A DNA stretch of 64,000 nucleotides from Candidatus Omnitrophota bacterium (GTDB lineage: Bacteria > Omnitrophota > Gorgyraeia > Zapsychrales > Fredricksoniimonadaceae), in contig JAGWOI010000002.1 in NCBI GenBank assembly GCA_028870995.1, positions 46,463 to 110,462 on the forward strand, in the 5' to 3' direction. The translations under genes were made by a program, and so were the position numbers. Below are positions 23,024-64,000 of this stretch, in pieces. Numbering within the stretch: the first letter of the stretch is position 1; each line of letters starts with the position of its first letter. The notes beneath the pieces are model-generated. The model saw only the letters and a program-made list of their open reading frames with translations, did not search any database and was not told the origin of the DNA.

Positions 23024-23027
23024 ATTT

Positions 23028-24711: not shown

Positions 24712-24744
24712 AAACTATTGACAAGCTAATATTAGGAGGAATCT

Positions 24745-25113: not shown

Positions 25114-25149
25114 GCCTGAATCTCAACGATATATTTAAGGAGGAATCCT

Positions 25150-25482: not shown

Positions 25483-25489
25483 CGCATCA

Positions 25490-25519: not shown

Positions 25520-25540
25520 CTAAATATAGAGGACAAACGC

Positions 25541-25732: not shown

Positions 25733-25780
25733 AGTGCCCCATAAGCCATGCGTAAACGCAGCAAAGAAATGAGGCGGGGC

Positions 25781-26578: not shown

Positions 26579-26601
26579 AAGGTGCAAACGTGAGGAAGGG
26601 A

Positions 26602-26961: not shown

Positions 26962-26979
26962 AGAGCAAGGACAAGGCCT

Positions 26980-37585: not shown

Positions 37586-37602
37586 TTCAGAGTGGAAATT
37601 AT

Positions 37603-37666
37603 AAATATCCATTCTGAATGGAAATTTAGATTTTAATATCCAATCTGAAATAAATATCCATTCTAC
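37603..37666. repeat. three direct copies of AATATCCAWTCT; the first is embedded in the palindrome CCATTCtGAATGG
   Basis: Copies at 37603-37621, 37635-37650 and 37652-37666 in the AT-rich tadC-downstream spacer. The palindrome spans 37609-37621. Confidence 0.4.
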
Positions 37667-37870
37667 TTAACATCTCCCGCTGGAAACGGTCTTATTCCTT
37701 TTATTGCTTCTAAAGCATAAATTTTGTTCCAAATCAACGTTTTTGGCTTAGAAAGCGCTTTCTATACTTTAATTTAGAAAAAATAATATCCCTTTTACAA
37801 TGAATTTTTATTATTTTTTCATTAAGGACAAAACTATTTGAAATATATGGGGTTATATCTCAATCTAAAT

Positions 37871-37899
37871 TTGCCAAAAGGTGGTCATCTGTATATAAT
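37871..37899 (+). promoter_or_regulatory. near-consensus sigma-70 promoter (TTGCCA, 17-nt spacer, TATAAT) upstream of the giant gene
   Basis: -35 at 37871-37876 and -10 at 37894-37899. Predicted TSS is near 37906. Confidence 0.45.
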
Positions 37900-37954
37900 A
37901 TGCTATACTTCAGGTGTCGACGACAAATCAGTCCCTTTGAAGCACCTGAAAACA

Positions 37955-38110
37955 TGAGCCAAGACTTGGAAAACACATCTGACATGCCCCAAGAGCAGAA
38001 GCAGAATTTTCCTGAAGCTCAAGAAAATTTTGCTGATTCCGTTGTTTTGGCCCCCCAAACACCTGCAGCAGACGCCACCCCTTTTGTCAGCCGCTTCAAT
38101 CAATGGATGA
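37955..38110 (+). CDS. possible 51-aa leader ORF overlapping the giant ORF start by ATGA
   Basis: MSQDLENTSDMPQEQKQNFPEAQENFADSVVLAPQTPAADATPFVSRFNNG. Its stop TGA 38108-38110 overlaps ATG 38107. It has no SD of its own, so this is speculative. Confidence 0.25.
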
Positions 38111-41100
38111 AGGTTATCGCTATAGTAGTTCTGGCGGCCTTTGTCCCTAATCAGGCCAGCTGGGCTTTTGGATATAACCCGTCCGTGCTTTACCGGAACC
38201 TGCCGGTTGCTCCTGTGCAGGATGAAGAAGGTATCGTCTTACCCCAACCGGCCATGCCGGGCGTTCAGGTTGCGGACAGCATGGAGTATTTGCTTAAGCA
38301 AATCCAGAACAAGCCCAAGCTGCGTCTGGAGCTTAACCTGAATGCCGGTTCCAAGGCGCACACCTTGGAAATCGATACCAAAACGACTTTTACTCCTGAC
38401 AAGATCACCCGGATTTCACAATGGCTGAAGACGCCCAATTTGAACGTGCTTAATTGCGGCGTGTATGCCCTGAAAGATATTTTAGAAGCCAACGGTATTA
38501 AGCGTTCCTTGCAGGAAGTTTCGGTGATGACCCTGTCCGTGGACATCATGGCGGACATCATCAAGGTGGGCGAGCCGAAATTAAAAACCACCCTTTTTGC
38601 CATCAACAAGACAGCCCAAGCGCTGGGGCTTAAGTACCAGAGCCTGAAGGTTTTGCCGCAAGATGAATTGAATCTGCCGACACCTTTTATTGCCCATTTT
38701 AAGAATGAGCATTTTGTGACGGTCCAGAAAGCCGTGGGCGGCGAAGTTTACTATACCGATCTTGATTATCCGCATATCGTCAAAGCTGGGGATTTCCTGA
38801 AAAATGCCGATGGGTTTGTTTTGGCTCAACCAACAGAAGGCATAACCGCTAAAGCCGTTCCCGAATCTCTGCAAGCCTTTGTTTGGGGCGATAAATGGCG
38901 CGACATGTCCCAGAACCTGCCGGGGATCGTGTCCGGAGCTCAGCTGGGCATTCAAATAGCCATCTTAGTTCTTAGGATTGTTTTGAGTTTTGTTCCGTAT
39001 GTGGGCACAGGCATCGAGTTTGCCATGTTTGCTTATGAAGTCAGTCAATTGGCCCAAGCCTTGGCTACCATCTGTGTCATGAAGGGCGCTTGCAGCCAGG
39101 ATGAAGCCTTTCTTCTAAGCACAGCCATTACAGCAGCTTTTACCTCGGGTTCAGTATTAGGTTTTGCCATGTCCATTGGAGAAGCGTATATGGACAAGGA
39201 AATTATTGAAGCCATCAACAGCGCGATCTGCCCTCATCCCAGCCAATGCAGTGATACGAGTTTAATCCTTGAGTCAGCGGCAGACGTGGCGGCCACCTCC
39301 GTTGCCAATGCAGCGGCAAACGCCGTGGCGAGTGCGGTTGCGGACGCGGTCAGCAATGCAGTTTCTTCCGGTTCCGGCACAGATCCTAATTCGGGCGGCC
39401 CTGGACCTTCTAATAATGGAAGTCCAGGAAGCGGGCCAAGTCAAAATCCTCCGGCCAACAACGCGCCGGCCTCTAATCCAGGATTAACCGGCCCGGCCGG
39501 AAGTCCTGTATCAAGCCCGACAAGCCCCACACCGACAACTACGCCGACGCCCCTGTGGGCTGACCTGCTCGGAGTAGGCAATAATTCCTCGTCTCCTTCC
39601 GTTGCCCGTCCGACCAATTTTTTTGAAGACTTTGGAGACAGGCTGGAAGCCTCTTTTTATCAGCAACTCCCGCAGGTGGTGGGCGACGTCGCGGGGATGA
39701 CGGCAAGGCTCATTGCCTATAAAGCATTCGGGGTTAAAGCCAATGATAATGTTTCCCAGGCGCTGGGGCTGGCTTTCAATGCCGTGGGTCAGTTAGCCGG
39801 AGAAGAGATTGATCATGAGATATCCTCAACAAACCCAAACAACCCATATCGCAATGGGATCAGCAGTCAGCAGCTTTGGGGGACGGTCATTAAGGCCTCC
39901 ATTGATTTGGGCATGGGGTTCGCGGCGGATGCGGCGATTGGCAAATATGACGATAAAAAGGCCAAGGAGAATGCCGCCTATGCCAATAACTATGCTTATC
40001 AACAGGCGGAGTTTTTCGGAATCGTAGCCTTGACTGCCAGCGCCGCCATGGCAGGCTACATGGCATTGACCACAGATGTGCCCGCAAATTCCGTGACAGG
40101 TAAGAAACCCGGGTTCTTGGATAAGTTTGGACTGGCCCTATTTGCTCCAGGGGAGTTGGCGGCGTCGGCTGTTACCACTGATATCAACGGCAAACCCGTT
40201 ACGGTCACTCAAAATATAGATAGCAATACTCCTTCAGTTTTAGGAAGCACGGCCGTCAATTTCGGCGGCATGAATTATGCCGTACAAAGCGTGGCACCCG
40301 GAACTCCTTATTCGGAGGTGTCAGGGACAGCGCCCGGATCCGGATTTACGGATGTTTGGCAAGTCGATCCTCAAACCGGCAAAAGCTTTCTTAAAGTAGA
40401 TGGGCTTGGCAATTACATGAACTTTATGCAGGTCCAGGGGCAAATGACAGGATGGACTCCTGAAAGGGTCGCAGGCGATGACATGTCCTGGAATGAGATG
40501 AAAAAGAATAATAAGGCGGTCTATAATGCTCCAGGTCATTTTGACGGTCTTATTTCATATACGCCGGCCACCCCCGCTGCTTCCGATAGTGAATTGCATG
40601 ACCAATTCCTGCTTGGCGAATTCGAATCCCGCTCTATCGGGATGCCCGGCCTTGCCCCTGATTATATCGCTGGACAATTTCAGGAAGCGGCAAACGAGGG
40701 GGCATTTAATGCATTCTCGTTAGGTATGTATGCAATTGCTGACAGGATGGCCAAAGAATATACTCCAACAGGAGTAGACCACTTGCAAAACGGGATAAAT
40801 GTCTATAGTACCGGGGATGCAGCTGGCGGCACCGTGGTTGGCGGAGATTATAACGCGCAGACCAATACTTTAACAGTTGCCCCAATGAGAGATTTCTTGT
40901 TAAGCATAGGGCTTCCGGATTTTCAGTTTGCTGCTACCGAGAGCGGTCAGCTTGCTATTGGCCAGGCCCATAAGGATTTGAATAAGGGGCTTTATTTTGA
41001 AGGCGAGACATCTGGCGGAGAGCAGGTAAATCAAAGTTTAAATGGCCCCGAGAAAACTTTAGAAAGGGGAACCCTTCAACCCTCAAATAGCAATATTCAA

Positions 41101-44100
41101 ATGTTTTCTCCGGCAATGTTTGCCGGATCTTTGCCTGCGGCAGGTTCTAACAATGAGGAACCCACAACGATCAAGCCGGACTCTAATCAGGAGGAGCCTA
41201 CGGCGATCAAGTCAGACGAGGGAACAAATACTTTGCAAGGAGCGCCTCTAAACGGGTCGGCTAACAAAGCCGAACAGAATCCCGCTCAAAACACCAATGA
41301 CCAGCAGAAGCCGTGGACAGTTTATCTTTCACCCGTACAAAACAATTCAACTGGGGCTCAGCAGGGAGTAGCTGTTCCCACAGCGGACGTTTTGGAGGGC
41401 AAGGTCAATCCTTCCGATCCTTTGTCCATCGCAAATTATATTGTACATGGCGGAGTGGTGTTCATGGTCAATTCTCCGGGCTCCACTTCAGACGCTCCGT
41501 TTTCAATCATTTCAGGGTTCGCTTCATTTAATACGCCCGCAGGAGGCAGGGGAACTTTAGCGGTTGTCAATGGCGGCCTTGATTATATGCCATTCAATGC
41601 TTTTTATGGGGCAACGGGCATGACAACTAAGGTGATTTCCGGCAATGGCGCTGCGGGCGGTTCCCAACAGACCACGGTATCCGTGCCGGGAGCGCCGATT
41701 GCTCCGGGCGCCGGCGGTTTCGGTCTTTTGAACAACGGTTCTTCTGAGGGGCAAGACATCAACTCTCCCGAGACACAATCTCCTTCAACCAGCACCACTC
41801 AGTCTGCGCAAGGAAACAATGGTCAGGCGACCTCAAATGTCGGTCAGGGCATTCAAGCCCTCGGAGAAGTGGCATCTTTGTTTGGGCTTCCGGGGGGTAG
41901 TTTAATATCAAGTATCGGTGCAGGAATCAACAATGTCATCGCCGGCGAAGCGACACAATCGGCGTCGCCCAACACCACCACCAAGGGAATACTTCAGACT
42001 TTTGGAAGCGGCATGGCGGAGAATGGCTCTCCTATCATTGGCGGGCTAGTGGCGGCATTAGGCAATAAGATTGACCAGGAAGGCGCTTCCAATACCGGCA
42101 CATCAGACAAAGAAGTTTTGGCGGCTCTGGAGACGGCGAAAAAGAGCGGCGGGCTTATCCCTCCGACCGATGCCCAGATCAAGGTGGCATTGGCCAAGGG
42201 ATTCATTCAACTGGATGCTGAGGGGAACCTTCCTTATGTATACAGACCATGGGGCTCTTCTCAAGCTGGTCTTGCCCCGCAGGCCGGAGGGTTAAATAAT
42301 CCATATGCCGCCAGCGGCCCGACTTTTTGGGGAACTGTTGCCAACGATTGGGCCCATCCCTGGGCCAATGTGGATCAGATTAAAGCGCTGAGAACACAAT
42401 ACTTCCCTCAGGGAGCAACGGACCAACAATTAGTTTATGTAGCTACAAGCGATGATCCGCAGGCAGTGGCCGCTAGAAATAAATTTGTCGGCGCCGGGCT
42501 AGAATCATTCCGGTTGAGCAATGGCACTGAAGTGGCGCTTAAGGGGGCTGTTCTTAATTTTAATCCGGGAGACACTGGAGAATACCTTGCGGCCCTTCCG
42601 TCAACCGGGAATGCGTATGCCTTTTATGGCAACTACAATTTTAAAACGCAGGGAAACCTAAACGGCGTTTCACAAATAGTGCCGGTCCTTGTCAGCAATG
42701 AATGGCAGCAGGGATTAGGCCAGCCTGGAACAGAGGGACAGGGCGGTCTAGTGGCAGCAAATGTTCAACAGGCGCTTTATAAAATGGAAGGTGCAAGTGC
42801 TGCCAAGAATCAGATTGTCAATGCAACGGTTCCCGTTAATATGCTCGCGGGGACACAGATTCCTGAGCCAACGCCCGGCCTTACGGTTGATTACAATTCA
42901 GGCAATGTCCTGGCCGCACCTGGTATTGTTCAGGAGGCAAACTCGTTCGGGACAATGACAACAATGAACGGAAAAACATCCTCTCCGTTGGCGCTGGACT
43001 CTTATGCCATAGCAGGCAACGGGAAGGATTTGATTGTCGGCAATGGGCAGCTTCCCGGCAAAGCCTTTGTAGGCTATCCAGGACTGCAGAACAACGATGC
43101 TTCCGTAGGTGAGAAAACCAGCTATACCACCAGTGCTAACTTTTCCTTAGCGCCGACAAACAGCCGTGCAGTGGGTGCGGGAGAAGGATATTTCCAATTC
43201 GCCATCCAGGGCATAAATTGGGCAAAGCCGGATGTCGCTCAAAAGGTCGGCGTGCAGGACATCAACTTTACTCCCGGCGCAATGGTAGAGCGGACTAACG
43301 GGGCATACGAATTTCCATTATTACCGGGCAAGACGGTTACCGGCAAGGGGGTTTTGCAGTACATTCTTCCAACAGCCCACAATAGTTTCGGGATTAAACC
43401 CTTAACAGGTGCACCGGAAACTTTTATTAAAAACACTGCTTTCGAGGCAGTTGTGGCTCCCGCTGACAAAACCATCATCAACGGCAACATTGATGCCAAT
43501 GTTAAGTTTGGATACGGCTGGAACGGAACTTCAAACGCTTGGGATGTATCTGCGGCTCAAAGTCAAGTTGATAAAAATTCTGTATTGACCAGCGGAGTCG
43601 ATCACCGCACGGCACTTGCCCGGCTTTGGTCTTCCCAGGGAGCTTGGGGTTTTGTTGCGACACCCACGGATGACTCAAGTACTTTTATTGTTCACGCTTC
43701 CGGCCCGGCGCAAGCTTTAACCGTGACACCGTCATTGCCATCGGCCGTGCCGGCCAATCCTCCTGCACAACAACCCTATCAAGGCATCCGGCTAGGAGAT
43801 GTTTATCAAATCTACGGAGCAGTGGATTTGAATCCTTCCGCGGACAGGATCCTTTTGGGGACAGGGACACAGCTGCCAATAGTATTAATGAGGAATGCCA
43901 AAGGAGACATAGAGGCAACCTCCATGCTGGGAGCGCCGGGCACGACGCTGCATATGCCGGCCGGTATGCAGGTGGGGGATGTGGTTGTGGCCAACACGGA
44001 TCATAATCCGGCGTCGAACAATGAGATGGCGGTGGCGGTTGGTCTTGATAACAAAAATATGGTTACCAAGACGTATACTGGCGAAGGGATGAGTTTTGTA

Positions 44101-56100: not shown

Positions 56101-59100
56101 AAACCCGAACAAGCATTGATCATTGTCCAGGACGAGAAGACCGGCAGGGCCCTTGCCAGGGTGACGCAGCAATTACCTCTGAAAGAGTATCTTTCTAAGG
56201 AGGATCAGGGTTTGACCCCGCTGGAGGTAACACGCAAACTGATAGAGGACAACATCAATTATATGAAATTCCGCGCGGCTTTGACAGATGTTAAAGCACA
56301 GATAGTGGCGCATTTTGTTCAAGACAATACGGCCATGAATGCTCTTAAGCGTATCGAACAGTTAAGACCAGACACCGAGAATATGCAAGAAATGATGAGC
56401 AAATTGAAAGAGGCGGCCGAAAGCGGGAATGAAACTGTCAGAAGCGCGTATGCCCTGATTGCGGATAATTCTTCTGAGACTGCGTTACGGGTATTAGCAG
56501 AAATTTTCTCGACGCAGACGAAGGCGATTCCTGACGGACAAGATATTAAGTTCATGAACCCTAAGACCGGCAGAGGCGCTGTTTTCACCAAGGAGGGGAC
56601 CTTGGTCAGGTTCGTGGCCCAAGAAAATTTTAAGCCAAGCGAAGATCGACAGATTCAAGATATGCGTTCCCAATTTGATGAGACGATCAACTCTTCTCTT
56701 AGAGAACTTTCCGAAGCCCATACCAAGGCCGAAACGACCTTTGATCCGATGCTTCAGAAGATATCCCAGGCCGGTGAGAAAAAGGACACAGCTGATATTC
56801 AAATGTCTTTGGCAGATTTAAGCGATGCACGTCAAGCGGCAGGCAAATTACTGGAAATCGCAAAGAATCAAGGAGGCAATGCCTTTGTCAGGCTGGGAAG
56901 TTCAGACCGCTTTGCGGGAATAGTCGCAGACCCATTGTTGCTTGCACAGATGGGTGTTTCGACAATGGTTAATTATGAGGGATCTAACAGCCGTGAAATG
57001 ACAGTGAAAGCGGGGACGGTATTGCCGGAAAAAGCCTCCGAGGCCATTTCAGCCAGCTTTAGGGGGGTGAACATCACAGTTTCTAAATTGGTTTCAGCGA
57101 AAAATAACGCCATTGAACAAAGGGTGGAATTGCCCCAGGGAGATGAAACCTTATTCAATTTCTTTCGCAACATGAAATATATAAAGAAGGTGGGGGTAAA
57201 GTATGAAATGGTGCGTCAGGCTGCCATTCAAATTCAACTTCAGCCTCAACCCGGCCACGAAAGAGAATTTGCCAACACCTTCTTCCATGAAGATATTCAC
57301 GGCCTTATTGAAACGGATCCCGAAGTTAGGAAGCAGGCTGATGAATATTTGGATTCGAAGAGTATGGAGTATGGGAAAAATAATACAGAAGCCTTTAATG
57401 CGTTAAAGGTGTTCAATGCGGCCTACAGGGCTTTGGGGTATGAAGCAAGTAAGAATGAAGTAGTCGAAAAAGAAGAATTTATTCCTTGGGTGGCGGACTT
57501 AAATACGCTTATAGGTTCGTTCGGCAGCTTAGATAAAATGAGTGCAGGGGAGATTCAAAGGCTTCCTTTACCGCAAGATAAGATTGCCGATTTATTATTA
57601 GTGAAGCAAGGGCTTTTAAATCCTGAATATAGAGAGTATTGGAATTCAGTTTCCGACAATATCAACAGGCTGGTTTCAAAATCGTTTGCCGGACATATGC
57701 AGGGTGGAGTAACTACCGGATTTGAAGCTGAGCAAAACTTCAAAGAGTTAGCCCGACAAGCCAAGGAAAATCAATCCAACCAGGCCATGGCCTCGCCGCG
57801 CAGCGCCAATGAGGTCATGAGCTTATTGGGGACGCCGGAAGGTTTGAGTAAACAATTAGCCGAATCCAAGAAGTTCTGGCGCACGGCCGCAGGCAAGGCT
57901 GCGGTTGATGCGGCCATCAGACTCGCCAAGAGCTACGGGGTCAAGGCCAATTATGACCCCTCGTCGGGTGCCCTGGTATTGACGCTGCCGGCCAACCGCC
58001 AGCGGCCGATGGAAATTTCTGCCGTCGTATTCCCCGTCAAAAAATTGGACAGGGCCGGCTATTATGAAGCCGCAGCCTTGGGCCAGCGGGACGTTATCCT
58101 GGTCGACTCCAGCGTTCCCGATATGCTCACCGCCTTCAAGGAAGAAATCCAGCATTTCCGCGATTCTTTCACGGACAAGGATGAGATTTTAAGCGAGATG
58201 AAGGTCAAAGCCCGCCTGAACGAAGAGCCCTATGCCGGTGCCATGCAGGCCATTCAGACGGTGGAAAGGCAATTCAAGACCGGGGCCATCAGGCCGCAAG
58301 AGGCGGATGGCAGGATCAAAGAAATCCTCAAGCCCGTTGAAGTGGCTTTGAGCCGCGAAGGGTATACCTCGGTTTCTTCAAAATCTTACGATACCCGCAA
58401 AGGCCTGATCGAAAGATGGCAGGAAGAAAAGAACCAGGCCATGACCAGCGATGCAGCCGAGCAGTTCCAACCCATTTGGAACATCCTTAAAAGTGTTCCG
58501 GACTTGCAACATAAAACGATCCTGGCTTTAGGAGAGACGGAAGGCTCCATCCCTTCAACCGTCGGCTTCCTGCAGTCGGCCGGGGCTGATCATGTGACGA
58601 CAGTGAATAGACTTGATTATCTCAAAGAACAACCGCAGGGTTCCGTGGATGTGGCTTTTGCCCGTTTTGCCTTTTATCCTCATGAACAGTTCAGCGCGAC
58701 TCCCGATGCCCAAGGGCTGCGCCCGGCCCTTATCAAGAGGTATGAACCGCTGGTCAAGGCGCTCAAGACCGGTGGCATGTTCATCAATGTTTATGAACGG
58801 CAGTACGAGCCCTATATCCTCAATCCCGCCGAACTGCAAGCCCTGCATTTACAGGCCGCCCAGAAGCTTATTGAGACAACCCTAAAGGTCGGCGATAAAG
58901 AATACCGGGTGCCGGCGGTCATGGTTGTTTACATGAAGGAACCCGCAAACCCGGCCCAGATGAGCATGCCGCAGCAGAATAATTGGGATGCCCTGCGCAG
59001 TGCCCTGGCCAATATCGGCATCCATATCGGCGCGCCTAAAGCCCTCAGCATGACTCCGGCCTTAAATAGGCCTGACTGGGCCATGATGAAACAGGAGCAG

Positions 59101-62100
59101 GAAGATCGCCTGCAGAGATTGACAGATGAATACCGCCAGATGAGTGAAAGGCAGATGGATACTTCATCCAACCATGTGGGTTCTTCCACCTATGCCGGTG
59201 CCGTGGATGTCAAGAACGTCCAGACCATTGCCTACGATGACCAGGCCATGATCGTCTATTGGGCCAATAAGGGCGATATCTTCAGGCTGGCGGCAGGGCT
59301 TATCCCCGACGGCATTTTCAAATTCACACCGCGCCATCCTCCGGAAGACGATGATCCCGATGCATCCGTGGCCTTGGAGCAATGGAAGGTCGGCCGCAGC
59401 GCCGCAGGTGCCGCCCTGGCCAAATTGGACAAAGCCCAGCTTGTCCCGATCCTGGTGCAGGCCTTACAGGCCCGCCATGACAGCAAAGCTTTTGAGGTGG
59501 TGTTTAGCTTCGGCCAGTTGTGGGCAGAGGTCAAGCATGCTTCCGCCTCCGATTTACAAGACATTAAAACGGCGCTCTCCTTGGTGCAGGCTCCGGCGGT
59601 GAGGACTATGGCGGCACAGGAACGGGCCAAGTATGAAATACCGGCGACCGCGCCGCCGCAGGAAGAAATCAGCATTGCCCCTGCCGTGCAGTCCTACATT
59701 GAGAAATTTGCTACCCAATATCCTTATGATTTCGCGATGCTCGCCAAGCGTGGGCCAGGTTTCCGCCGCGATGTGTTGGCTGACAGCGCGCATTTGATTC
59801 CTATCCTGTTCCGGGCCCAGCGTTTGGCCTTGATCAATTCACTGGCGCTTAGGTCCGGCAACCAGGTAGGGTCTTCCATCGCTACTTCTTCGTCGACGGT
59901 CAGCCTGGTTAAATTCAATCTGAGCGACCTGGTCATGTTCACCTATCAGCTGGGTCATTTCAAGGGCGAGAAGGCCAGGATCGTTTTGGAAATCTTCCTG
60001 AACATGGCTGGATTCAATCTGCTGAAGGCCATGCCGCAGAATGACATTGCCCCCGACGATGATGACAGGGCCAATTTGAAGCAGGAAAGGGATCTCATCC
60101 GCGGCGCCTTTAAGACAGCCGGCTTGACCAATGCGGCCATGATCGTGGGTTACTTTAGAAAGTATGATGTGGCCGCCGATTTGAAGGATAAAGCCCGCCG
60201 AAATGATTTGACGCAACTCCTTGAGGTGGCGCTGACTACAGAACAGGGCCAGGGCGACTACACGCCGCCGTCCGATATTGTTGATCAGGCCCAGCAGATG
60301 GTTGACGAAATCGGTGCCGCCCGGAACGCCGCACCGGTTGAGACGAATGTTCAACCCGGCATGCCGGTCATGCCGCCGGCCGTTCCGCTGCCGGTGGTGC
60401 GCCAGAGCCTGGATCTGGCCATGGCGGCCGGCAGTGATGAAGTGCCGCGGTATGCCGAGAATACGGCGGCCAATGTCAGGACGGATGTCAACGAAACGCC
60501 GCTTTCCCCGACGGATGAGAGAGCTTTGCTGGCTGCGGCACCTTCAGGCGCCTTGAGCAATGCGGCGATGAGCAGCGACAATTATCTTGAAAAAGTGCTG
60601 GCGGCCTCCGGCGGCAAGAGCATCAGGAAGGGCCAACAGGAGGCATTCAGAGATTTATTGCAGAAGAACGGCCGGATTGAGCAGGCTTTGGAAAAAGGCG
60701 GAATCTGGATAGGTAATGTCGGTGTCGGCGCGGGCAAGAGTTCGGCGGGTCCTGTAGCGATTTGGGCCGCACTTCAGGATACTTCCAAGGGCGCCAAACT
60801 GGTCGTCCTGCAGCATTCCAGCGCCTTGATCAAGCAGAACCTGCAGGAAGTCCAGGCCTATGCTGCCGGCTTTGATCCCAATATCAAGGTGGCAGAGATC
60901 AAGGTTGATCCGCAGGGTACCAACATAAAAGATGCGCTGCAAAAGGTCAATGAGGGTAATATTCTCCTGATCAACAACAAGGATGCCCAAACATTGATCG
61001 GCCTGGCCAGGAACGGTAATGCCGAAGCCAAGGCGGCTCTAGGTGTTTTGGTTTCTCAAGGGGCTCTCTATGACGATGAAATCGTCTCCGCACCTGATTT
61101 GAATATCGGCGGCAAGTCAAACAGTAAAACTTCTCAGGATATTATTAAAGGTGTTCAGTATGCCATTGAACAGCTCAAGGCCGCCAGCAATGGCTCACTG
61201 GAAGATGTATTTGCCAGCGTCAAGACCAGGAACGAAGAAGAGGGCAGCATCCGCGTATCCACCAGCAAGACGGCGGAAGAGGTGCTGTTAAGTGAATTTC
61301 CTGACATGAACACCCTCGAAGAGATCAGGGGCACCCAAGAAGGCCGCAACGCTGAAGCATACCTGCAAGCCGTGGTCGAAGCTATTGCCATGATCAAGGA
61401 AGATGAAGTGGCGATCAGCCCTGACGGCAAGATCATGAACCAGGCTGACGCCTACGGCGTTGTTTCCCAGGGGGTCATTACGTCAGATCCTTATTTGATT
61501 GCGGCCGAAGTCCTGGTCAAGAGGATGATCGACCATCAGCCGGTCACTCAGGAGATTTTGAACAATATCGAGCACCAGGTTGAAGGCGAGCGCGTGCGCG
61601 GGGATGCCATTATCCGGGAATTCGGCCATGCCAAGCGACCGGTTATCCTCCTGTCAGGCAGCGTCACGCCGTTCATTGCCGATGAATTTAGGCTTTTATT
61701 GGGCGCCCAGTCCTTGACGCCCATCAATGGGTTTGATCTTGGCCGGTTAAAGACGAGCGAAGGCCAATGGATCAAGGAGATCACGCCTGCGGCCGACATT
61801 GAAGAGGCTGTTGCCGACATCGAGGCCGTGGTGCAGAAACCCGGGACAAGGAGCGTCATAGTCCCGCTGGCGGTCAGAGAACCCGGGAAAACCAATTCTC
61901 CGACGGAGATTTATTTAAATCAACTTCAAGGTGTTGCTGAGCGCAACGGCATCGGCCTGGCCTTCCTGGCTGCAGACGGCGAAAACTATATCATTGCCAA
62001 TGGCCAGCGCGAGCAGGTAACTAAGGAAAAGCTCAACAGCCTGCTCAATGACGGCAGGTACCTCATTGTCCTGGCCCGCGGCCGCATCCGCGGGGAGACG

Positions 62101-64000
62101 GTTCTTTCCAAACGCGGGGATGTAGAGCTGGTCATCACCGACTCCAAGGGTACCTATACCGAGGTCAGCCAAAGCTTTGGCCGCAGCCGCGGCATTACGG
62201 ATGAAAACGGCGTTCTTACCCAAGAACCTGTTGAGAAACGCTTGATCGGCGTCCATATGCCTTTCAGCTTCCCGGCCGTCATGGGGCTGCTTATTGCCAA
62301 TGAAAAACAATTTGATAAGCAGGTGGCCGGCCAGGCCCGCAGCAACGAGATCACGGCATTTAATACGGCTTACTGGGAACGGTTCATCGAGGAGCATCCG
62401 TCGCTGCCGGAAGGCGTCAAGGCCTGGATCCGTCAGCGTTCCGGCGAAGTGAACCAGGATGTCTATAAATTGCGGCTTTTGAACATCGACGGTCAGCTGA
62501 CCCCGATGAGGGAGTTCTATGAAAGCTCATTGAAGCGGATGATCAAGGGCATGCAGACCATGGCCGAGGCCCTGATAGCCTTAAGCAATGTCCCTGACAG
62601 CGCCAAGGAGGATCTCAAGGCCCAAGTACTGCCCGTCGAAGTCGACTTTGAGCCTAACGAAGAGCTCGGTCCTCAGGCCGGGAGCCTTCTGGAAGCGGCA
62701 ACGCCGCAGGAATTTGTCGATACCTTTACCCGCATTACACCTGAGGACAGAGTCCCTGAGCAGTTTGCCGGCCCCATTCCCGACCAGTTGTTTGCTGTGA
62801 GGCAAGATGAAACGAATAATAATTTAACAGTCAGGACCATCCTCAACAGCTCCAAGCAGTATGGGGAAGAGATTTCAGCTGTTTATAATCAAGGCGATGA
62901 GCCCCAGGAATATTCTTACGAAGGCAACAAGATCGTCATTCAAGGCCAGGAGGTCTTTACGCCGGGCAATGCCAGGTTCTTTGCGTATGATCCGACCCTT
63001 AAAAACGGCTATGATGCCAGCAGCCCCAAGGCGGCCCTGTTGCCTGGCAAGAACGGCATGGTACGCGCCGATTTTGTCAGTCAGGACACCGTCGAGATGC
63101 CGGCTGAGCCGATGGACATTAACGGGACCAGCCTGCCCGTTGTTGAGGTGGTCAATATTAATAAAGAAGGCATCCCGCAGGTCATCGGCTGGAAGATCGC
63201 CCTGCCGGACGACCAGCAGGACCAGCAGATAACGGCCCTGGGCAGCGTGAATTTAGACCGTCCTTTAAATGACGGCGACTTGATCGTTAATTTGAGGCTC
63301 GAAAACGGCGAGACCCTGAGGGCGGTCCTTAACGGCGTCAATACCAGGGACATCAAGGCCCTCTTTGCCTATGATGCTGCCGCAGATGAGAGCAGCCAGT
63401 ATGAACCCATCCCTGTTTCTCAAGACGGCCTTATCGTGCGGCCGTTGGGCCAAATTACGGACAATACGAACGTTGTTGCTGCCTATACCCTCAAACGCCC
63501 CGCCACCGGAGAGATCGGTCCGGCTATCGTTACTATCAGGATCAACGGCACAAACGAGGCCCTTAAGACCAGGGAAGGCATGGTCCAAGCCGTAGCACAG
63601 CTGATGTTGCTTATCGGCCAGGGGGTTGAAGTCAGCCCGCGCGCTTCTGGTTTGAGATTCCAGGATACAACCAAGAATTTTATTGAGACAGCCCGCAGCT
63701 TTTATGAGGTAAGCACGCCTACCGAAGGATCCAGGCAAGCCTTTGCCCGTGCCGCCTTAGATTACGTCCGTACCCAGGTTCATATCATGAGGAGTTCCCT
63801 GGCAGGCCAGGATATGGTTGAAGCCATCCTGAAGAAATATGACCAGATGGTCCAGGAGCAAAAGCAGGAAGAGGCTGTGGCAGCAGGGTATCTTCCAACT
63901 AATTTCCAAACTGACAAGAAGAAAGCCAATGGGGCCGTTTCCTTTATAAAGAAGCTTCTGCCTAAAGGTCTGGCTGGCGCTGTGCTGTTTTTTATGGGGC
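38107..64000 (+). CDS. giant secreted multidomain protein (at least 8,631 aa in window; 3' end beyond window)
   Basis: I translated the frame codon by codon from ATG 38107 to the window end and found no stop in 25,894 nt. The nearest upstream in-frame stop is 38035-38037. Every track ORF in this span is antisense or out of frame. The N-terminus MKVIAIVVLAAFVPNQASWA followed by FG looks like a signal peptide. It is followed by a C39-like peptidase domain, TM helices, Ala-rich and PST-rich linkers, a duplicated 220-aa module and P-loop-like motifs. Confidence 0.85.
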   Translation, partial: MKVIAIVVLAAFVPNQASWAFGYNPSVLYRNLPVAPVQDEEGIVLPQPAMPGVQVADSMEYLLKQIQNKPKLRLELNLNAGSKAHTLEIDTKTTFTPDKITRISQWLKTPNLNVLNCGVYALKDILEANGIKRSLQEVSVMTLSVDIMADIIKVGEPKLKTTLFAINKTAQALGLKYQSLKVLPQDELNLPTPFIAHFKNEHFVTVQKAVGGEVYYTDLDYPHIVKAGDFLKNADGFVLAQPTEGITAKAVPESLQAFVWGDKWRDMSQNLPGIVSGAQLGIQIAILVLRIVLSFVPYVGTGIEFAMFAYEVSQLAQALATICVMKGACSQDEAFLLSTAITAAFTSGSVLGFAMSIGEAYMDKEIIEAINSAICPHPSQCSDTSLILESAADVAATSVANAAANAVASAVADAVSNAVSSGSGTDPNSGGPGPSNNGSPGSGPSQNPPANNAPASNPGLTGPAGSPVSSPTSPTPTTTPTPLWADLLGVGNNSSSPSVARPTNFFEDFGDRLEASFYQQLPQVVGDVAGMTARLIAYKAFGVKANDNVSQALGLAFNAVGQLAGEEIDHEISSTNPNNPYRNGISSQQLWGTVIKASIDLGMGFAADAAIGKYDDKKAKENAAYANNYAYQQAEFFGIVALTASAAMAGYMALTTDVPANSVTGKKPGFLDKFGLALFAPGELAASAVTTDINGKPVTVTQNIDSNTPSVLGSTAVNFGGMNYAVQSVAPGTPYSEVSGTAPGSGFTDVWQVDPQTGKSFLKVDGLGNYMNFMQVQGQMTGWTPERVAGDDMSWNEMKKNNKAVYNAPGHFDGLISYTPATPAASDSELHDQFLLGEFESRSIGMPGLAPDYIAGQFQEAANEGAFNAFSLGMYAIADRMAKEYTPTGVDHLQNGINVYSTGDAAGGTVVGGDYNAQTNTLTVAPMRDFLLSIGLPDFQFAATESGQLAIGQAHKDLNKGLYFEGETSGGEQVNQSLNGPEKTLERGTLQPSNSNIQMFSPAMFAGSLPAAGSNNEEPTTIKPDSNQEEPTAIKSDEGTNTLQGAPLNGSANKAEQNPAQNTNDQQKPWTVYLSPVQNNSTGAQQGVAVPTADVLEGKVNPSDPLSIANYIVHGGVVFMVNSPGSTSDAPFSIISGFASFNTPAGGRGTLAVVNGGLDYMPFNAFYGATGMTTKVISGNGAAGGSQQTTVSVPGAPIAPGAGGFGLLNNGSSEGQDINSPETQSPSTSTTQSAQGNNGQATSNVGQGIQALGEVASLFGLPGGSLISSIGAGINNVIAGEATQSASPNTTTKGILQTFGSGMAENGSPIIGGLVAALGNKIDQEGASNTGTSDKEVLAALETAKKSGGLIPPTDAQIKVALAKGFIQLDAEGNLPYVYRPWGSSQAGLAPQAGGLNNPYAASGPTFWGTVANDWAHPWANVDQIKALRTQYFPQGATDQQLVYVATSDDPQAVAARNKFVGAGLESFRLSNGTEVALKGAVLNFNPGDTGEYLAALPSTGNAYAFYGNYNFKTQGNLNGVSQIVPVLVSNEWQQGLGQPGTEGQGGLVAANVQQALYKMEGASAAKNQIVNATVPVNMLAGTQIPEPTPGLTVDYNSGNVLAAPGIVQEANSFGTMTTMNGKTSSPLALDSYAIAGNGKDLIVGNGQLPGKAFVGYPGLQNNDASVGEKTSYTTSANFSLAPTNSRAVGAGEGYFQFAIQGINWAKPDVAQKVGVQDINFTPGAMVERTNGAYEFPLLPGKTVTGKGVLQYILPTAHNSFGIKPLTGAPETFIKNTAFEAVVAPADKTIINGNIDANVKFGYGWNGTSNAWDVSAAQSQVDKNSVLTSGVDHRTALARLWSSQGAWGFVATPTDDSSTFIVHASGPAQALTVTPSLPSAVPANPPAQQPYQGIRLGDVYQIYGAVDLNPSADRILLGTGTQLPIVLMRNAKGDIEATSMLGAPGTTLHMPAGMQVGDVVVANTDHNPASNNEMAVAVGLDNKNMVTKTYTGEGMSFVNAAFQNMHASVKDIQNNSALETVTGQYKLGVTLNNNGQFFLNPKASDASKLNITDNAHTLKAAFGLDKNGAFYVTPVFGKDDVLYHSSGPAQALLPSGLPSDSSAPSSSITPYQGIKLGDNYQINLVKDENPSVEKILLGEGTQLPIVLMKNAKGDIEATSMLGAPGTTLQMPSGVQVGDLAIANKDLTVAVGLDSRDMVTRTYTGEGSSVENAQGGQIAWTLSNGHFQVDLLTPALQQALTQAKGEAADELKKNGKDLTWLNGQIASYEDQLSKLNQDVATQIGRSWINPKGWVDNSRSQRDALAQGLQRLYMMKFALTMSTSDLLDMQKDLGDKRYYTVPGAVIDDTLKLKAVNDILQTGTPQSQVIAAYLKVQQNNDRTVGELSYFADSQNKLAESGGDHLIPLGANQYEYPLLFKKGMDNQISDFKNGMGQKQDDLTALVNIYNSNKSSLTPEVQKMVESLIKNTGKLISDINTENTKGGENGDVNFAAILQTNGWRTFWNSRKFDYNYDPNYEPLSGTGRFIGTMWNGVKGGVSWVGTQIGITGINGTWDYLVNGENNYGNYWHASNETAAGIATGDIQTWSPWGTIKSGVTYVAGVPTWLVNRQTGKQVFELASQMPTGEYDPFADAYNKGGAWKIDYYAGHASEVVLETVTAARVMRLGALGSLTPAGTLAAPTGAFWGTLGFAEATGLGRMAWQDHKGEGPVSSEELSNNTLATVIAPVVLGKLTGAINSTYGAALANTATGRFINTVISPLTETAGADGQIIPMTAGTALKNVAISTGTVVGGGLVLANAGTMIGGNGPLTLKQDAKLAGALALVNTGRIGAGALANGLTGKLAGQGFLKGITAGLSQEIKSGLANAAFTNRALFGAANSLNYGVQLGSAAASWGMISNEWQNPQAGFGDMMSVGWKDFKPAFLTGTAVGAYSSLSSPTLGLGNKFSSQVVKFFSPSSRWSYLTWPTLAVGGEALLNGKNATAKDYIDVASMALGARYLAGGFAAGTAAGGSEKVTGFYKFGAYLTNPEIKGLTLANVGRYSALAATGAVANIAKDALVGEFEHATNISLGNNLDMYVKRNNEGRIVARSAVAAPGYNFESDSGIGGEHWDRQLEASAFRGAFWATMAGLAVKDAGNIAGNFENKFGLGKMEMADSSAQPASTMEGLFDKIAINPAERFGAHGAWGGLKWIPIGVQFPVYTGVYKSVIFGIENRYLPNGTLLNLEDKSVSPDEVQTNSGETATGLVRMFDRGSWSLTDKAKASLWNAFVTAPESGVTLNPMIAATTLAREPGGPASEWRIGLRDTLQNSGLSEPLGLAKVAAVVTGIDAAMDMTSTRHWVVANPKYPNEVYTVNENISTGFGPDTGNPFSERSIGSWAGLILAMKPSAVLSKSEYAMDLAVKQANGGEHGRAIETLDNAMESLPLEKQAPLQNLRYNIARNQDEQVFQAGKGRTAGVNEAELVKPLEQNAAEKQLNNYITQLRASGNNDLADQMEATKQNANSQTYYNRAISLAQQGYFKAADDYFNLADESLTKARTVDSQNGSKYYLPQMQIMQGRLESLRVQQQGLEKPSVELAGRIGKAADAIDQFVKQGLASQDAATRKVFQNISSSIEAGRIADRADMMIRSGSTIDAAGLYEKARALDPDNARYYFLRESQVREKQGGKENQAKAIDLLNKAADLTESGQWLKSNVRSYETFRAAQKEMELNPNDLQAAGRLDQARDKLVSELTKKVNAAPEGIRNGMDRFLVSVLREKAEAHLQRGEFNKYFDTRLEIFNRENEVGNASAAADFARSAAIKDTVDRLLSKYLKSAVETPVQAIETPQAAETAKTLRETISTVKDKKDISSARSLIKALDDYLGQNESQLKTTAGRELINRATDILTNMSQAMADSSGVKMEEAMNKAPENSIDKARAAESLARIAIWQEAIKTPTASGLKAGKSRVTGLIDQAKRMYEAAKDTNGIKRIQALRGMADEGFNNADQRLKTGLTGLRNEVRVIMERLAQQNAGRGGYLTVADIDPVLAKLNKAEDQGMTPAEIAFSKVALYAERARLGDVTQKATDLQEAGNELAKLKTANSSDEFKAQNAEHFDQDVKGLESLLEQVRQEPVQVKTFSANDSVVTRDAIMKERNKAEDGTAESAPMPYGENGRGSKVEYRDADGKLVGTRIESGNVIREEWTVPGLELGGGGAGFIGRAPDGKLLVTIIHNGEDAIRTHEMKEAMALKLQEAASNGRINPEAAGAEKLWKQLTVERSPGVRVFRSSHEYAEQYLAAPSPVERAGKTQGELETPESQGPPAVDLRSPGVFAANDKVLEPLPVNQPSTPSFERKEAPESFARLYENVYGPLTPEARREAMVRHNIERLISPEPLSEKEITERTKRDLVEKYFPATEEGKPFSGEEAFFNESMKSPAASLTKEDLEKLPLQEKVDELTKMALRRMRDNFVAQNPSENTPGMFKYREGQTALTRAAIEYIESYDPDKKGPFDLVTMSMNMGAGKSALAEALPVVEEMTGKKLAYVVEDAGLKKFIENGGIEGFYRPKSIDNGILDLSPKEGQKGVLVLSQGELKTIDLNLKSGKYTEIKTPRVLSDHVVIVDEIQKMVTDAALVFGKSDSFGKEWIAENERKNNGAYQHLKISKEFGKAFINILENTISERAVSAGSDRAAINEMVTLRTGENGQQIVNATKFKDDVRTTLSKKLEDLINSNPDYGKLNLDINKLLDAGAVWYEGLLHGRINITRAIDRQGFADAGLNGKEVFRNLVDNNLLEEVSEGSGTGILKEGINRKTFEDRLRELKNEDGSPVYNNDQIETILRAVDKGLKDGKIVISPRQFENLGELLHNRIFSDQSGFNAFSRVMMAYLEVKGIPVPGKDRNDSVPVNMDDLAIYAQHVLPHETQRSTGADALHLAGRVLGLSATLGDSQALLQSIGSRFWQIHPEAKLEDMNWRFQIESQLTTRQSMVREAVGHDFDNQKLLILNSVLVPKMIAETGEGTTGFINSIKNQIKEQIRTKLKAQGLTDDQANKQADQWVKDHDIKVIPESNLKNGFKDLAEEGIKKPTIVFTSMREGVSVEVKDVQAMHVDFSVRSLAEQLQSMGRLNVYKDNRPSSRTRGEYKLVINTADDPNLTSDQKAQFNKLAELLKSGNQRTKSRVYRAAEDYLVNAVMRDFSRNKSTSSIVQTLQDNGISGEKISEVVSQARKGLMLPLIEGRVNAGKISGDNTVFVPLSNGARMEVQLNENRNFNAYREVAIHAANNQPETSISEYAKIQQGQVYDKITNSVWTNAQWNLKPEMRGTPVAAVKELDVPIPESEMEDFSPDAPKTEPRMVLMGAPQHVVEGNYDVVKYDMPLLSNGEIIHVPVTFKHNPVSGQWELDKELEQNKHIVVPSLGKARVEEATNLLGQHYFRFFKPSSNGSEELIALGVEGHLLKLSQEAAKKEKQVFEIATKKQVFFGPKRGYEYVRGKNLYRVDFKMGDRQGMLIKEGMLVTNREPIHFDGITIQAGDQLFQSRNNNGDNVWEVRNSSGTPKALIVNDTAAPLVNGRRAVMARDSLRLVMEENPVDGKPLTVEVPTIHEYVRVMNPQTKQETWEPAAMVVDTDKLKESLGILKGDRIDPNSGVVTHGNGKIRGIYYKTFFYKPVVKEGKEIFEVSVGGDSALNKYRRNDMVGLGLINENYAGSTVDVKPKDFIDAVASVNRSLQRINALGELNRQVGEEDRSVVIKELTDEMEAMLERQPGVIVERITEGTGKDERTYLRIKATNEEGSRFFDMMSFFKGKITQLANEQIEKHIAPQLQEKAMDRIEESLKEHPMEMVFDPYMERKGTAGLADNKRLSLGTNAMLDILQLSPDAMEAGVPEHEVSHIVERLLATNGIPTVGGASRITNLLDIAKRTDRGIYVGDYSLGEVYTHWIEAAGKLANAQRALALGDKKTFTAFVNEAVKVLERGRNISLSVLDTYERALKVVDKAIATEKVLRETDKNAELKHIPGILQIQPNKESLLKGEKPEQALIIVQDEKTGRALARVTQQLPLKEYLSKEDQGLTPLEVTRKLIEDNINYMKFRAALTDVKAQIVAHFVQDNTAMNALKRIEQLRPDTENMQEMMSKLKEAAESGNETVRSAYALIADNSSETALRVLAEIFSTQTKAIPDGQDIKFMNPKTGRGAVFTKEGTLVRFVAQENFKPSEDRQIQDMRSQFDETINSSLRELSEAHTKAETTFDPMLQKISQAGEKKDTADIQMSLADLSDARQAAGKLLEIAKNQGGNAFVRLGSSDRFAGIVADPLLLAQMGVSTMVNYEGSNSREMTVKAGTVLPEKASEAISASFRGVNITVSKLVSAKNNAIEQRVELPQGDETLFNFFRNMKYIKKVGVKYEMVRQAAIQIQLQPQPGHEREFANTFFHEDIHGLIETDPEVRKQADEYLDSKSMEYGKNNTEAFNALKVFNAAYRALGYEASKNEVVEKEEFIPWVADLNTLIGSFGSLDKMSAGEIQRLPLPQDKIADLLLVKQGLLNPEYREYWNSVSDNINRLVSKSFAGHMQGGVTTGFEAEQNFKELARQAKENQSNQAMASPRSANEVMSLLGTPEGLSKQLAESKKFWRTAAGKAAVDAAIRLAKSYGVKANYDPSSGALVLTLPANRQRPMEISAVVFPVKKLDRAGYYEAAALGQRDVILVDSSVPDMLTAFKEEIQHFRDSFTDKDEILSEMKVKARLNEEPYAGAMQAIQTVERQFKTGAIRPQEADGRIKEILKPVEVALSREGYTSVSSKSYDTRKGLIERWQEEKNQAMTSDAAEQFQPIWNILKSVPDLQHKTILALGETEGSIPSTVGFLQSAGADHVTTVNRLDYLKEQPQGSVDVAFARFAFYPHEQFSATPDAQGLRPALIKRYEPLVKALKTGGMFINVYERQYEPYILNPAELQALHLQAAQKLIETTLKVGDKEYRVPAVMVVYMKEPANPAQMSMPQQNNWDALRSALANIGIHIGAPKALSMTPALNRPDWAMMKQEQEDRLQRLTDEYRQMSERQMDTSSNHVGSSTYAGAVDVKNVQTIAYDDQAMIVYWANKGDIFRLAAGLIPDGIFKFTPRHPPEDDDPDASVALEQWKVGRSAAGAALAKLDKAQLVPILVQALQARHDSKAFEVVFSFGQLWAEVKHASASDLQDIKTALSLVQAPAVRTMAAQERAKYEIPATAPPQEEISIAPAVQSYIEKFATQYPYDFAMLAKRGPGFRRDVLADSAHLIPILFRAQRLALINSLALRSGNQVGSSIATSSSTVSLVKFNLSDLVMFTYQLGHFKGEKARIVLEIFLNMAGFNLLKAMPQNDIAPDDDDRANLKQERDLIRGAFKTAGLTNAAMIVGYFRKYDVAADLKDKARRNDLTQLLEVALTTEQGQGDYTPPSDIVDQAQQMVDEIGAARNAAPVETNVQPGMPVMPPAVPLPVVRQSLDLAMAAGSDEVPRYAENTAANVRTDVNETPLSPTDERALLAAAPSGALSNAAMSSDNYLEKVLAASGGKSIRKGQQEAFRDLLQKNGRIEQALEKGGIWIGNVGVGAGKSSAGPVAIWAALQDTSKGAKLVVLQHSSALIKQNLQEVQAYAAGFDPNIKVAEIKVDPQGTNIKDALQKVNEGNILLINNKDAQTLIGLARNGNAEAKAALGVLVSQGALYDDEIVSAPDLNIGGKSNSKTSQDIIKGVQYAIEQLKAASNGSLEDVFASVKTRNEEEGSIRVSTSKTAEEVLLSEFPDMNTLEEIRGTQEGRNAEAYLQAVVEAIAMIKEDEVAISPDGKIMNQADAYGVVSQGVITSDPYLIAAEVLVKRMIDHQPVTQEILNNIEHQVEGERVRGDAIIREFGHAKRPVILLSGSVTPFIADEFRLLLGAQSLTPINGFDLGRLKTSEGQWIKEITPAADIEEAVADIEAVVQKPGTRSVIVPLAVREPGKTNSPTEIYLNQLQGVAERNGIGLAFLAADGENYIIANGQREQVTKEKLNSLLNDGRYLIVLARGRIRGETVLSKRGDVELVITDSKGTYTEVSQSFGRSRGITDENGVLTQEPVEKRLIGVHMPFSFPAVMGLLIANEKQFDKQVAGQARSNEITAFNTAYWERFIEEHPSLPEGVKAWIRQRSGEVNQDVYKLRLLNIDGQLTPMREFYESSLKRMIKGMQTMAEALIALSNVPDSAKEDLKAQVLPVEVDFEPNEELGPQAGSLLEAATPQEFVDTFTRITPEDRVPEQFAGPIPDQLFAVRQDETNNNLTVRTILNSSKQYGEEISAVYNQGDEPQEYSYEGNKIVIQGQEVFTPGNARFFAYDPTLKNGYDASSPKAALLPGKNGMVRADFVSQDTVEMPAEPMDINGTSLPVVEVVNINKEGIPQVIGWKIALPDDQQDQQITALGSVNLDRPLNDGDLIVNLRLENGETLRAVLNGVNTRDIKALFAYDAAADESSQYEPIPVSQDGLIVRPLGQITDNTNVVAAYTLKRPATGEIGPAIVTIRINGTNEALKTREGMVQAVAQLMLLIGQGVEVSPRASGLRFQDTTKNFIETARSFYEVSTPTEGSRQAFARAALDYVRTQVHIMRSSLAGQDMVEAILKKYDQMVQEQKQEEAVAAGYLPTNFQTDKKKANGAVSFIKKLLPKGLAGAVLFFMG
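43690..44760 (+). repeat. tandem duplication of a roughly 660-nt (220-aa) module inside the giant ORF, including a 59-bp perfect direct repeat
   Basis: The 59-bp stretch AATGCCAAAGGAGACATAGAGGCAACCTCCATGCTGGGAGCGCCGGGCACGACGCTGCA is identical at 43894-43952 and 44554-44612. Flanking protein sequence is about 60% identical (HxSGPAQAL...QGIxLGD...LGxGTQLPIVLMxNAKGDIEATSMLGAPGTTL...). Confidence 0.75.

Follow-up and report, generated by a model that had tools for sequence, protein, structure and literature searches.

We analysed a stretch of 64,000 nucleotides from a Candidatus Omnitrophota bacterium (assembly GCA_028870995.1, contig JAGWOI010000002.1, positions 46,463 to 110,462 of the forward strand; the window in the following), which ends inside a giant open reading frame (ORF) located behind the genes of a Tad-like secretion or pilus system. 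The giant ORF is a real, single and uninterrupted coding frame. Its size, its phylum, the organization of its N-terminal part (the head) and its synteny place the locus among the published giant genes of the Omnitrophota, which are tiny and probably predatory bacteria, and it adds another example to that class rather than presenting a new phenomenon. We consider it fairly probable that the window holds the first 26 kb of a giant gene from a sub-family headed by a C39 peptidase, whose product would combine a membrane head with a surface body acting together with the Tad pilus. The two elements concerned are:

37954-63999, forward strand: giant ORF of at least 8,682 codons that continues past the window end.
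15822-37585, forward strand: Tad-like secretion/pilus cassette (Pfam matches; N-termini read from the translations).

An earlier note on this DNA, made from the letters alone, had reported a frame without a stop over ~25.9 kb, and this was borne out: the frame of position 38107 is stop-free from 37804 to base 64000 and is preceded by a TGA at 37801-37803. The second-longest ORF of the window measures 2,946 nt. As a stop-free frame of 26 kb at ~50% GC is impossible by chance, the giant ORF cannot be a chance product. The start had to be moved. The same note placed it at 38107 and counted at least 8,631 codons. However, the 51 codons ahead of 38107 (MSQDLENTSDMPQEQKQNFPEAQENFADSVVLAPQTPAADATPFVSRFNQW; MSQDLENT...TPFVSRFNQW) are kept at the protein level in two Omnitrophota relatives, both of which carry an in-frame stop 5-7 codons 5′ of the equivalent ATG. 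We therefore take ATG 37954 as the true start, which leaves at least 26,046 nt open, above the 20 kb limit used by Seymour et al. (2023). ATGAGCCAA is kept as the start of the giant ORF in ~21 loci, and an extension of 50-95 residues precedes the first hydrophobic helix in all database homologues. Residue numbers are counted from ATG 37954 unless we refer to the old numbering, which was counted from 38107.

The description of the product as largely non-repetitive held as well. Tandem Repeats Finder reported no tandem repeats in the giant ORF, and the sole internal duplication of the protein pairs residues 1900-2051 with 2121-2263 at 58% identity (43651-44106 and 44314-44742). There is no homopolymer of 8 or more bases in the giant gene of the window. 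Residues 5-1010 and 4819-5768, 1,956 residues together, are identical to two partial proteins of the short-contig 'Candidatus Omnitrophica' assembly GCA_028865175.1, which provides independent support for the sequence of the giant ORF. For tadC a 2 kb contig was the sole exact match.

The codon usage, which had been described as uniform and similar to that of the neighbouring genes, proved to be neither. Along the giant ORF, the relative synonymous codon usage correlates with that of the housekeeping genes at -0.01 to 0.72, compared to 0.95 for the Tad genes. The GC content at third codon positions (GC3) is 0.42-0.58 over residues 250-6750 (38700-58200 of the window) and reaches host-like values of 0.60-0.70 only in the last ~1,900 residues. 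Among the neighbours we found 0.61-0.76 in dnaA, gyrB, gyrA and the annotated Tad genes, and lower values in dnaN (0.55), the cassette gene u276 (0.56) and a transposase-like helix-turn-helix (HTH) ORF (0.42). A shift of this kind along the ORF is what an assembly artefact might leave behind, i.e. a long frame produced by a mis-join or a collapsed region, and the metagenomic origin of the sequence would also allow for a break in its long-range continuity. Against this stand the impossibility of such a frame by chance, the 1,956 identical residues in the two stretches of an independent short-contig assembly, and the relatives, which share the architecture and have ORFs of at least 11 kb open to the locus end. 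Moreover, in all 11 relatives examined (L004, L007, L009, L011, L013, L014, L016, L017, L024, L029 and L031) the GC3 of the giant ORF lies below that of the upstream cassette, by 0.03-0.31 and typically by 0.1-0.2. The compositional shift thus characterises the gene class and does not indicate a chimera, and we regard an assembly artefact as very improbable. Fast evolution under a mutational AT bias may be the cause of the GC3 drop.

For the comparison with published giant genes we relied on three studies. Seymour et al. (2023, PMC10066038) reported that the genomes of 77 out of 116 Velamenicoccia species carry ORFs >20 kb; in Velamenicoccus archaeovorus, where the Tad locus lies at 12382-29832 of the genome, peptides of a giant protein of 39,678 residues increase in attached cells. 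West-Roberts et al. (2023, bioRxiv 10.1101/2023.11.21.568195) described giant genes with an N-terminal signal peptide and a C39 domain and with divergent SecA-DEAD modules; the secretion locus ahead of them comprises a Rotamase_2 isomerase, rcpC, gspD/E/F and genes with class-III signals. Nielsen & Lui (2026) catalogued 916 long proteins, one architecture cluster of which is that of PF03412, and 13 of 14 giants in their study are flanked by genes for secretion or pili. Our locus agrees with this class in its phylum, in its length of >20 kb, in the N-terminal hydrophobic segment followed by C39, which with S8 is one of the two peptidase types expected there in the class, in the upstream cassette of the Tad or type II secretion system (T2SS) type, in the small number of annotated domains, in the poor sequence conservation and in the P-loop 'DEAD-like' modules. 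The gene order ahead of the giant ORF equals the order described by West-Roberts et al. (2023), and the cassette at 15822-37585 holds all five class markers, namely gspD, gspE, gspF, rcpC and the Rotamase_2 peptidyl-prolyl isomerase (PPIase). The position directly downstream of tadBC given by the earlier note was also correct (tadB at 35815-36675, tadC at 36677-37585).

Other traits of the class compare as follows. Most members contain divergent SecA_DEAD or SecA preprotein-binding domains; PF07517 was not detected in the visible part of our protein, which has two P-loop modules. Numerous transmembrane helices are typical; simple hydrophobicity scales gave few beyond residue 705 here. Small pilZ genes and solute-binding or glycoside hydrolase genes follow downstream in the class, in a region that lies outside our window. 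Of the domains that are spread along proteins of the Archaeovorin type (glycosyl transferases, glycoside hydrolases, methyltransferases, NUDIX and peptidases), the searches recovered C39 alone from the 8,682 visible residues; the 3′ part beyond the window could carry domains of this type. The many dockerin and TSP3 repeats of the Dockerin type have no counterpart among the Pfam matches or repeats of the visible part.

Scans of genomes and metagenomes with the N-terminus yielded 37 related loci. All relatives of the N-terminus come from Omnitrophota metagenome-assembled genomes (MAGs) or from metagenomes, and the closest loci are Omnitrophota MAGs. The earlier note had linked such giant genes next to Tad or other secretion loci to the Omnitrophota, a link that the identical Omnitrophica fragments and the published reports confirm. 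In 22 of the 24 loci with enough upstream sequence tadC precedes the giant gene at a distance of 0.35-5.8 kb, and the gene order flp-u110-u276-u796-u926-u981-u113-tadB-tadC is kept in the relatives. Where at least 6 kb of downstream sequence was available, the giant ORF stays open to the locus end, up to 11 kb, in 19 of 20 loci. The single exception (L025) changes frame exactly at a G9 run (13689-13697) and is then open for >7 kb. We therefore rejected its 'closed' head ORF as a separate gene in favour of a frameshift at the G9 run, which reflects either an error of sequencing or a switch for phase variation by strand slippage. The first ~400 residues are conserved at 38-76% identity, conservation is weak up to residue ~1000, and essentially none is left beyond; tblastn of the giant protein against the 37 loci likewise gave almost nothing past residue ~1000.

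The conserved head comprises the following features:

37954-38106, forward strand: acidic N-terminal extension of 51 residues, conserved (50-95 residues long in all homologues).
38107-38169, forward strand: hydrophobic helix 1, residues 52-72 (MKVIAIVVLAAFV; hydrophobicity scans).
38371-38853, forward strand: C39 papain-like cysteine peptidase, residues ~140-300 (PF03412, structural model, Foldseek).
38917-40068, forward strand: membrane-helix cluster, residues 322-360, 386-404 and 687-705 (hydrophobicity scans).

With the corrected start the hydrophobic stretch is internal, and the product does not begin with a Sec-type signal peptide as had been proposed. As the helix follows a conserved extension, which we infer to be cytoplasmic, it reads as a signal anchor rather than as a cleaved N-terminal signal peptide. 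Altogether we counted 5 strong and ~4 weak hydrophobic segments in the 8,682 residues with simple hydrophobicity scales, most of them within residues 1-705. A Pro/Ser/Gly-rich linker at residues ~470-540 lies between the helices of the membrane cluster.

The C39 domain scored 30.4 bits against PF03412 (cut-off 22). Of the checks suggested by the earlier note, profile searches recovered C39 above the cut-off and left ~95% of the protein without a family match, and structure prediction of the N-terminal part reproduced the C39 fold, with a disordered loop at residues 202-211. In the AlphaFold2 model, built from an alignment of 8 sequences, the block means of the predicted local distance difference test (pLDDT) over residues 140-300 are 40-91 and mostly 62-91. 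The best PDB matches reported by Foldseek are LahT150, PCAT1, ComA and the C39-like domain of HlyB (entries 6mpz, 7n87, 3k8u and 3zua among the matches), with a target TM-score of up to 0.74 and E = 1e-5. The candidates for the catalytic triad, Cys168 (38455-38457), His253 and Asp269, all align with the catalytic residues of LahT150. The family alignment shows no variation at His253 and Asp269, and the Cys is kept in every sequence covering that site. Judged by this alignment and by the model, the C39 domain therefore looks catalytically competent. It resembles the C39 domains of the PCAT/AMS ABC transporters (LahT, PCAT1, ComA) in its fold, in the Cys-His-Asp triad and in the spacing from His to Asp. 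In contrast to those it is not fused to an ABC transporter but sits between membrane helices at the head of the protein, its oxyanion Gln is replaced by Asn, and no double-glycine leader substrate is evident.

An intact triad also raises the question of whether the giant protein is a polyprotein, which its own C39 domain would cut into many proteins so that the full-length product would never be a working unit. West-Roberts et al. raised this possibility, and the triad is intact and conserved, unlike in the inactive C39-like domain of HlyB. However, motifs resembling double-glycine leaders are not enriched: the strict pattern was observed 0 times compared to 0.4 expected, and GG dipeptides occur 45 times compared to 63 in shuffled sequences. 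Proteomics detected peptides of the giant ORF of V. archaeovorus, although this does not settle the question of processing. We consider the polyprotein unlikely.

Over its visible length, ~95% of the giant protein is without a Pfam or NCBIfam match. NCBIfam gave nothing meaningful, and a second Pfam pass with shifted segments added nothing. Behind the head we can distinguish the following parts:

40954-48600, forward strand: Cys-free body rich in Gly, Ala, Asn, Thr and Ser, lineage-specific (composition, no family match, low GC3).
48610-49278, forward strand: alpha-helical TPR-like stretch, a weak signal (TPR_2 at E = 7e-4, below the cut-off).
51421-53463, forward strand: P-loop nucleoside triphosphatase (NTPase) module 1, residues ~4490-5170 (motifs read from the sequence).
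60637-63621, forward strand: P-loop helicase-like module 2 (residues 7562-8160) and a conserved downstream domain (PF00270, HMMER relatives).
63937-63999, forward strand: hydrophobic segment cut by the window end (…LLPKGLAGAVLFFMG); an equivalent membrane helix follows the module-2 block in P0013 and P0014.

The Cys-free body spans ~3,000 residues. For both halves of the protein, phmmer against PDB returned only weak matches to designed TPR-like repeat proteins. After the TPR-like stretch the sequence continues with Lys/Glu-rich segments, which hold both P-loop modules. Module 1 shows a Walker A motif (GAGKS, 51577-51597), DEIQ (51877-51891) and LSATLG (52831-52848); no relatives were detected for it, the single match being a fragment from the same organism. 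Module 2 shows a Walker A motif (60727-60747), DDEI (61069-61083) and GRSRG (62179-62193) and scored 25.5 bits against PF00270 DEAD, just under the cut-off of 26. A word-index search with residues 7480-8631 of the old numbering gave no match at E <= 1e-5, and exhaustive HMMER searches with the module-2 block recovered eight relatives, including proteins of 5,689 and 4,542 residues. Over residues 7580-8556, i.e. module 2 and the next ~400 residues, the identity to pieces of other very long proteins is 21-28%. As the profile of module 2 fails to recognise module 1, the two modules are not demonstrable paralogues.

By eye, the modules recall SecA in the order of their motifs: Walker A, DExx followed by G-K-S, (S/T)-A/G-T and a GRxxR-like motif, with a long insertion after DExx. 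To the SecA motor, which has a DEAD-like NBD1 with an inserted preprotein-binding domain, they have no significant sequence or profile similarity. PF07517 SecA_DEAD and PF01043, the preprotein cross-linking domain, did not match the visible giant protein at E <= 1, and the single-sequence AlphaFold model of module 2 (pLDDT 42) is too poor for a structural comparison with SecA. Further motifs noted by eye, which have no family support, are HEVSH and HEDIH (HExxH, metalloprotease-like) and ILALGETEG, which recalls motif I of S-adenosylmethionine-dependent methyltransferases (55663-55677, 57286-57300 and 58519-58545).

The composition of the body could also suggest a pure adhesin or fibre, a passive surface filament comparable to LapA, Bap or RTX adhesins that would act neither as an enzyme nor as a motor. 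The long Cys-free region rich in Gly, Ala, Asn and Thr and the adjoining pilus locus fit this idea, and Seymour et al. discussed adhesion for some giant ORFs (2023, PMC10066038). Giant repeat adhesins, however, consist of tandem Ig-like, cadherin or RTX arrays, and neither Pfam nor Tandem Repeats Finder found any here. The absence of tandem repeats and of adhesin, Ig-like, cadherin or RTX family matches, together with the presence of two P-loop NTPase modules and a peptidase, makes a purely passive filament quite improbable.

We also weighed the possibility that the gene encodes a multidomain protein of the type carried by conjugative plasmids or phages. The Walker A, DExx, HEDIH and HEVSH motifs and the methyltransferase-like motif, all read by eye, would suit such a mobile-element protein, and a transposase-like ORF lies inside the Tad cassette. 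Yet tblastn of residues ~4490-8682 against 72,556 plasmids and 50,697 phages gave no match, Rfam reported no intron or other RNA element in the giant ORF, and the chromosomal site near dnaA and gyrBA is conserved with the Tad locus of V. archaeovorus. We judge this origin extremely improbable.

The region between tadC and the giant gene contains two further elements, which we compared over 37800-37953 of the window and the equivalent regions of the loci L002-L031 for the promoter and leader, and within 600 nt 5′ of the giant start for the array:

37871-37953, forward strand: promoter and conserved leader with GTCGACGA, followed by an A-rich stretch before the ATG (consensus scan, DNA-level conservation).
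37585-37664, no strand assigned: array of WTTTCCAWTCTGA / TCCAWTCTG motifs, an inverted pair and then direct copies (putative operator).

The predicted sigma-70 promoter, TTGCCA-17-TATAAT, matches the consensus at 11 of 12 positions (-35 at 37871-37876, -10 at 37894-37899), and a second -10 (TATACT) overlaps its TATAAT. The block from TGTATATAATATGYTATACTTC to GTCGACGA is conserved at the DNA level in ~21 loci despite a protein identity of 40-75%, as is a block with ATTATTTTTTCATTAAG ~70 nt 5′ of the -35. The A-rich stretch before the giant ATG has no Shine-Dalgarno sequence. The proposal that the giant gene has a strong promoter of its own is thus upheld by a near-consensus sigma-70 prediction at 37871-37899 that is conserved across loci.

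TCCAWTCTG occurs in 2-5 copies in this upstream region in all 22 loci, usually as an inverted pair at constant spacing followed by direct copies. Its density is 5.4 per kb upstream compared to 0.02 per kb elsewhere, a ~250-fold enrichment. The array is a putative operator for a DNA-binding protein, as suggested by this distribution. Two other explanations were discarded. The palindrome can fold (z = -2.9) and was considered as the hairpin of an RNA terminator, but variants in its arms are never compensated and direct copies follow; the uncompensated variants speak for a DNA site rather than an RNA stem. Nor are the motifs DnaA boxes, as this genome uses canonical TTATCCACA boxes, which are clustered at 6526-6627. 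The same palindrome is found inside yidC (3993-4034), and related copies lie inside parB (1711-1771). The two giant-gene preprints searched for this contain no mention of promoters, operators, intergenic motifs or codon usage, and the conserved promoter and the upstream TCCAWTCTG array are possibly new here.

Under the reading that we favour, a C39-headed Omnitrophota giant gene acting with the Tad pilus, the gene would be read from its own conserved sigma-70-type promoter, directly behind the Tad-like cassette and near the replication origin, and a DNA-binding protein recognising the TCCAWTCTG array upstream of the promoter would control its expression. The constant head of ~400 residues (acidic tail, helix, C39, helix cluster) would anchor the protein in the inner membrane, with the C39 domain on the outer side of the cytoplasm. 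The Cys-free part rich in Gly, Ala, Asn and Thr (residues ~700-2,800) would likewise be extracytoplasmic and might coat the surface or serve in cell contact, and the Lys/Glu-rich part with the two ATP-binding modules would stay cytoplasmic. The protein could then work with the co-located Tad pilus when the cell attaches to its host or prey, in line with the proposal made for Velamenicoccus archaeovorus. Our confidence in this arrangement, i.e. in the anchoring by the head, the extracytoplasmic body, the cytoplasmic ATP modules and the action with the pilus, is moderate to low. A surface effector used with the pilus is the working hypothesis of the field, to which our locus would conform by analogy.

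Several observations weigh against this arrangement. The number of strong hydrophobic segments alone does not put the ATP-binding modules in the cytoplasm. A SecA-like identity of the modules, which is reported for most giant genes, did not emerge from the searches: phmmer, a module-2 profile run on PDB and an hhalign comparison with E. coli SecA matched only the Walker A region. Besides C39, the searches of the 8,682 visible residues recovered no domain for adhesion, no glycoside hydrolase or dockerin and no other enzymatic domain, so that a surface or predation role is argued from the context and by analogy. The window ends before the 3′ end of the giant ORF and thus does not show its total length or the genes that follow, and its expression in this organism is predicted from the sequence.

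More tentatively, the C39-headed giants may form a discrete and tightly regulated sub-family with a constant head, a conserved promoter and operator array (one inverted and ~three direct TCCAWTCTG sites) and a hypervariable, AT3-shifted body. The head would then be an adaptor coupling variable bodies to the membrane and to a Tad-like machine with giant pseudopilins, and a DNA-binding switch could respond, for example, to prey or host contact. We see this as possible but doubtful.

The giant genes of the Omnitrophota make up a sizeable share of very small genomes and are expressed in the one cultured predator. The comparison of 37 loci offers several handles for experiments, namely the corrected start codon, the constant head of ~400 residues with a complete C39 triad and the conserved promoter. 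The repeated upstream DNA motif could be used to fish out the regulator of the giant gene, and the conserved P-loop block common to otherwise unrelated giant proteins is a further handle. The systematic GC3 drop inside the giant genes fits an unusually fast evolution.

The remaining features of the window belong to the Tad-like cassette and to the region of the replication origin. Within the cassette we identified the following genes:

15822-16871, forward strand: SurA/Rotamase_2 PPIase (Pfam).
16895-17752, forward strand: rcpC/cpaB (Pfam).
17749-19590, forward strand: secretin fused to a C-terminal TonB_C (Pfam).
19891-22047, forward strand: TadZ-TadA fusion ATPase of 718 residues, ParA-like TadZ and T2SSE TadA (Pfam).
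22044-22400, forward strand: DUF192 (Pfam).
23028-24083, forward strand: transposase-like HTH ORF (GC3 0.42).
24083-27300 and 35455-35796, forward strand: small genes of a group of ~10 Flp-like pilin or pseudopilin genes, to which the large u796 and u926 also belong (class-III-signal-like N-termini, KGQxxxEY and a hydrophobic stretch).
27090-29480, forward strand: u796, 796 residues, Flp/pseudopilin-like N-terminus.
29691-32471, forward strand: u926, 926 residues, Flp/pseudopilin-like N-terminus.
32497-35442, forward strand: u981, 981 residues, Cys-rich, with a Sec signal peptide, secreted.
35455-35796, forward strand: u113.
35815-36675, forward strand: tadB (Pfam).
36677-37585, forward strand: tadC (Pfam).

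The cassette is similar to the Tad pili of predatory bacteria (Bdellovibrio and like organisms) in that TadB, TadC, TadA, TadZ, RcpC, a secretin and Flp-type pilins are encoded in one locus. It differs from the Bdellovibrio type in the fusion of TadZ and TadA, in the TonB_C domain of the secretin and in the three large proteins without a family (796-981 residues) between the pilins and tadB. These three, u796, u926 and u981, have no Pfam match and keep their synteny in most relatives; the first two can be described as 'giant minor pilins'. We saw no prepilin peptidase in the window. The middle of the cassette contains a stretch of low GC (22400-24745) with the transposase-like HTH ORF, which could be an insertion element or act as a local regulator. 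The gap at 24083-24745 also has two short ORFs under the threshold of the ORF list.

The start of the window covers the origin region with two groups of genes:

Window start, origin region, reverse strand: ndk, parB, parA and yidC.
Origin region, forward strand: dnaA, dnaN, gyrB, gyrA and tRNA-Glu.

Three perfect DnaA boxes (TTATCCACA) lie in the spacer between dnaA and dnaN at 6526-6627, and the cumulative GC skew is lowest at ~4-6 kb of the window. The replication origin is probably located in the region of 6526-6627, ~31 kb from the giant gene. The yidC region (2001-4000) has a GC content of 0.39 compared to ~0.45-0.53 around it.

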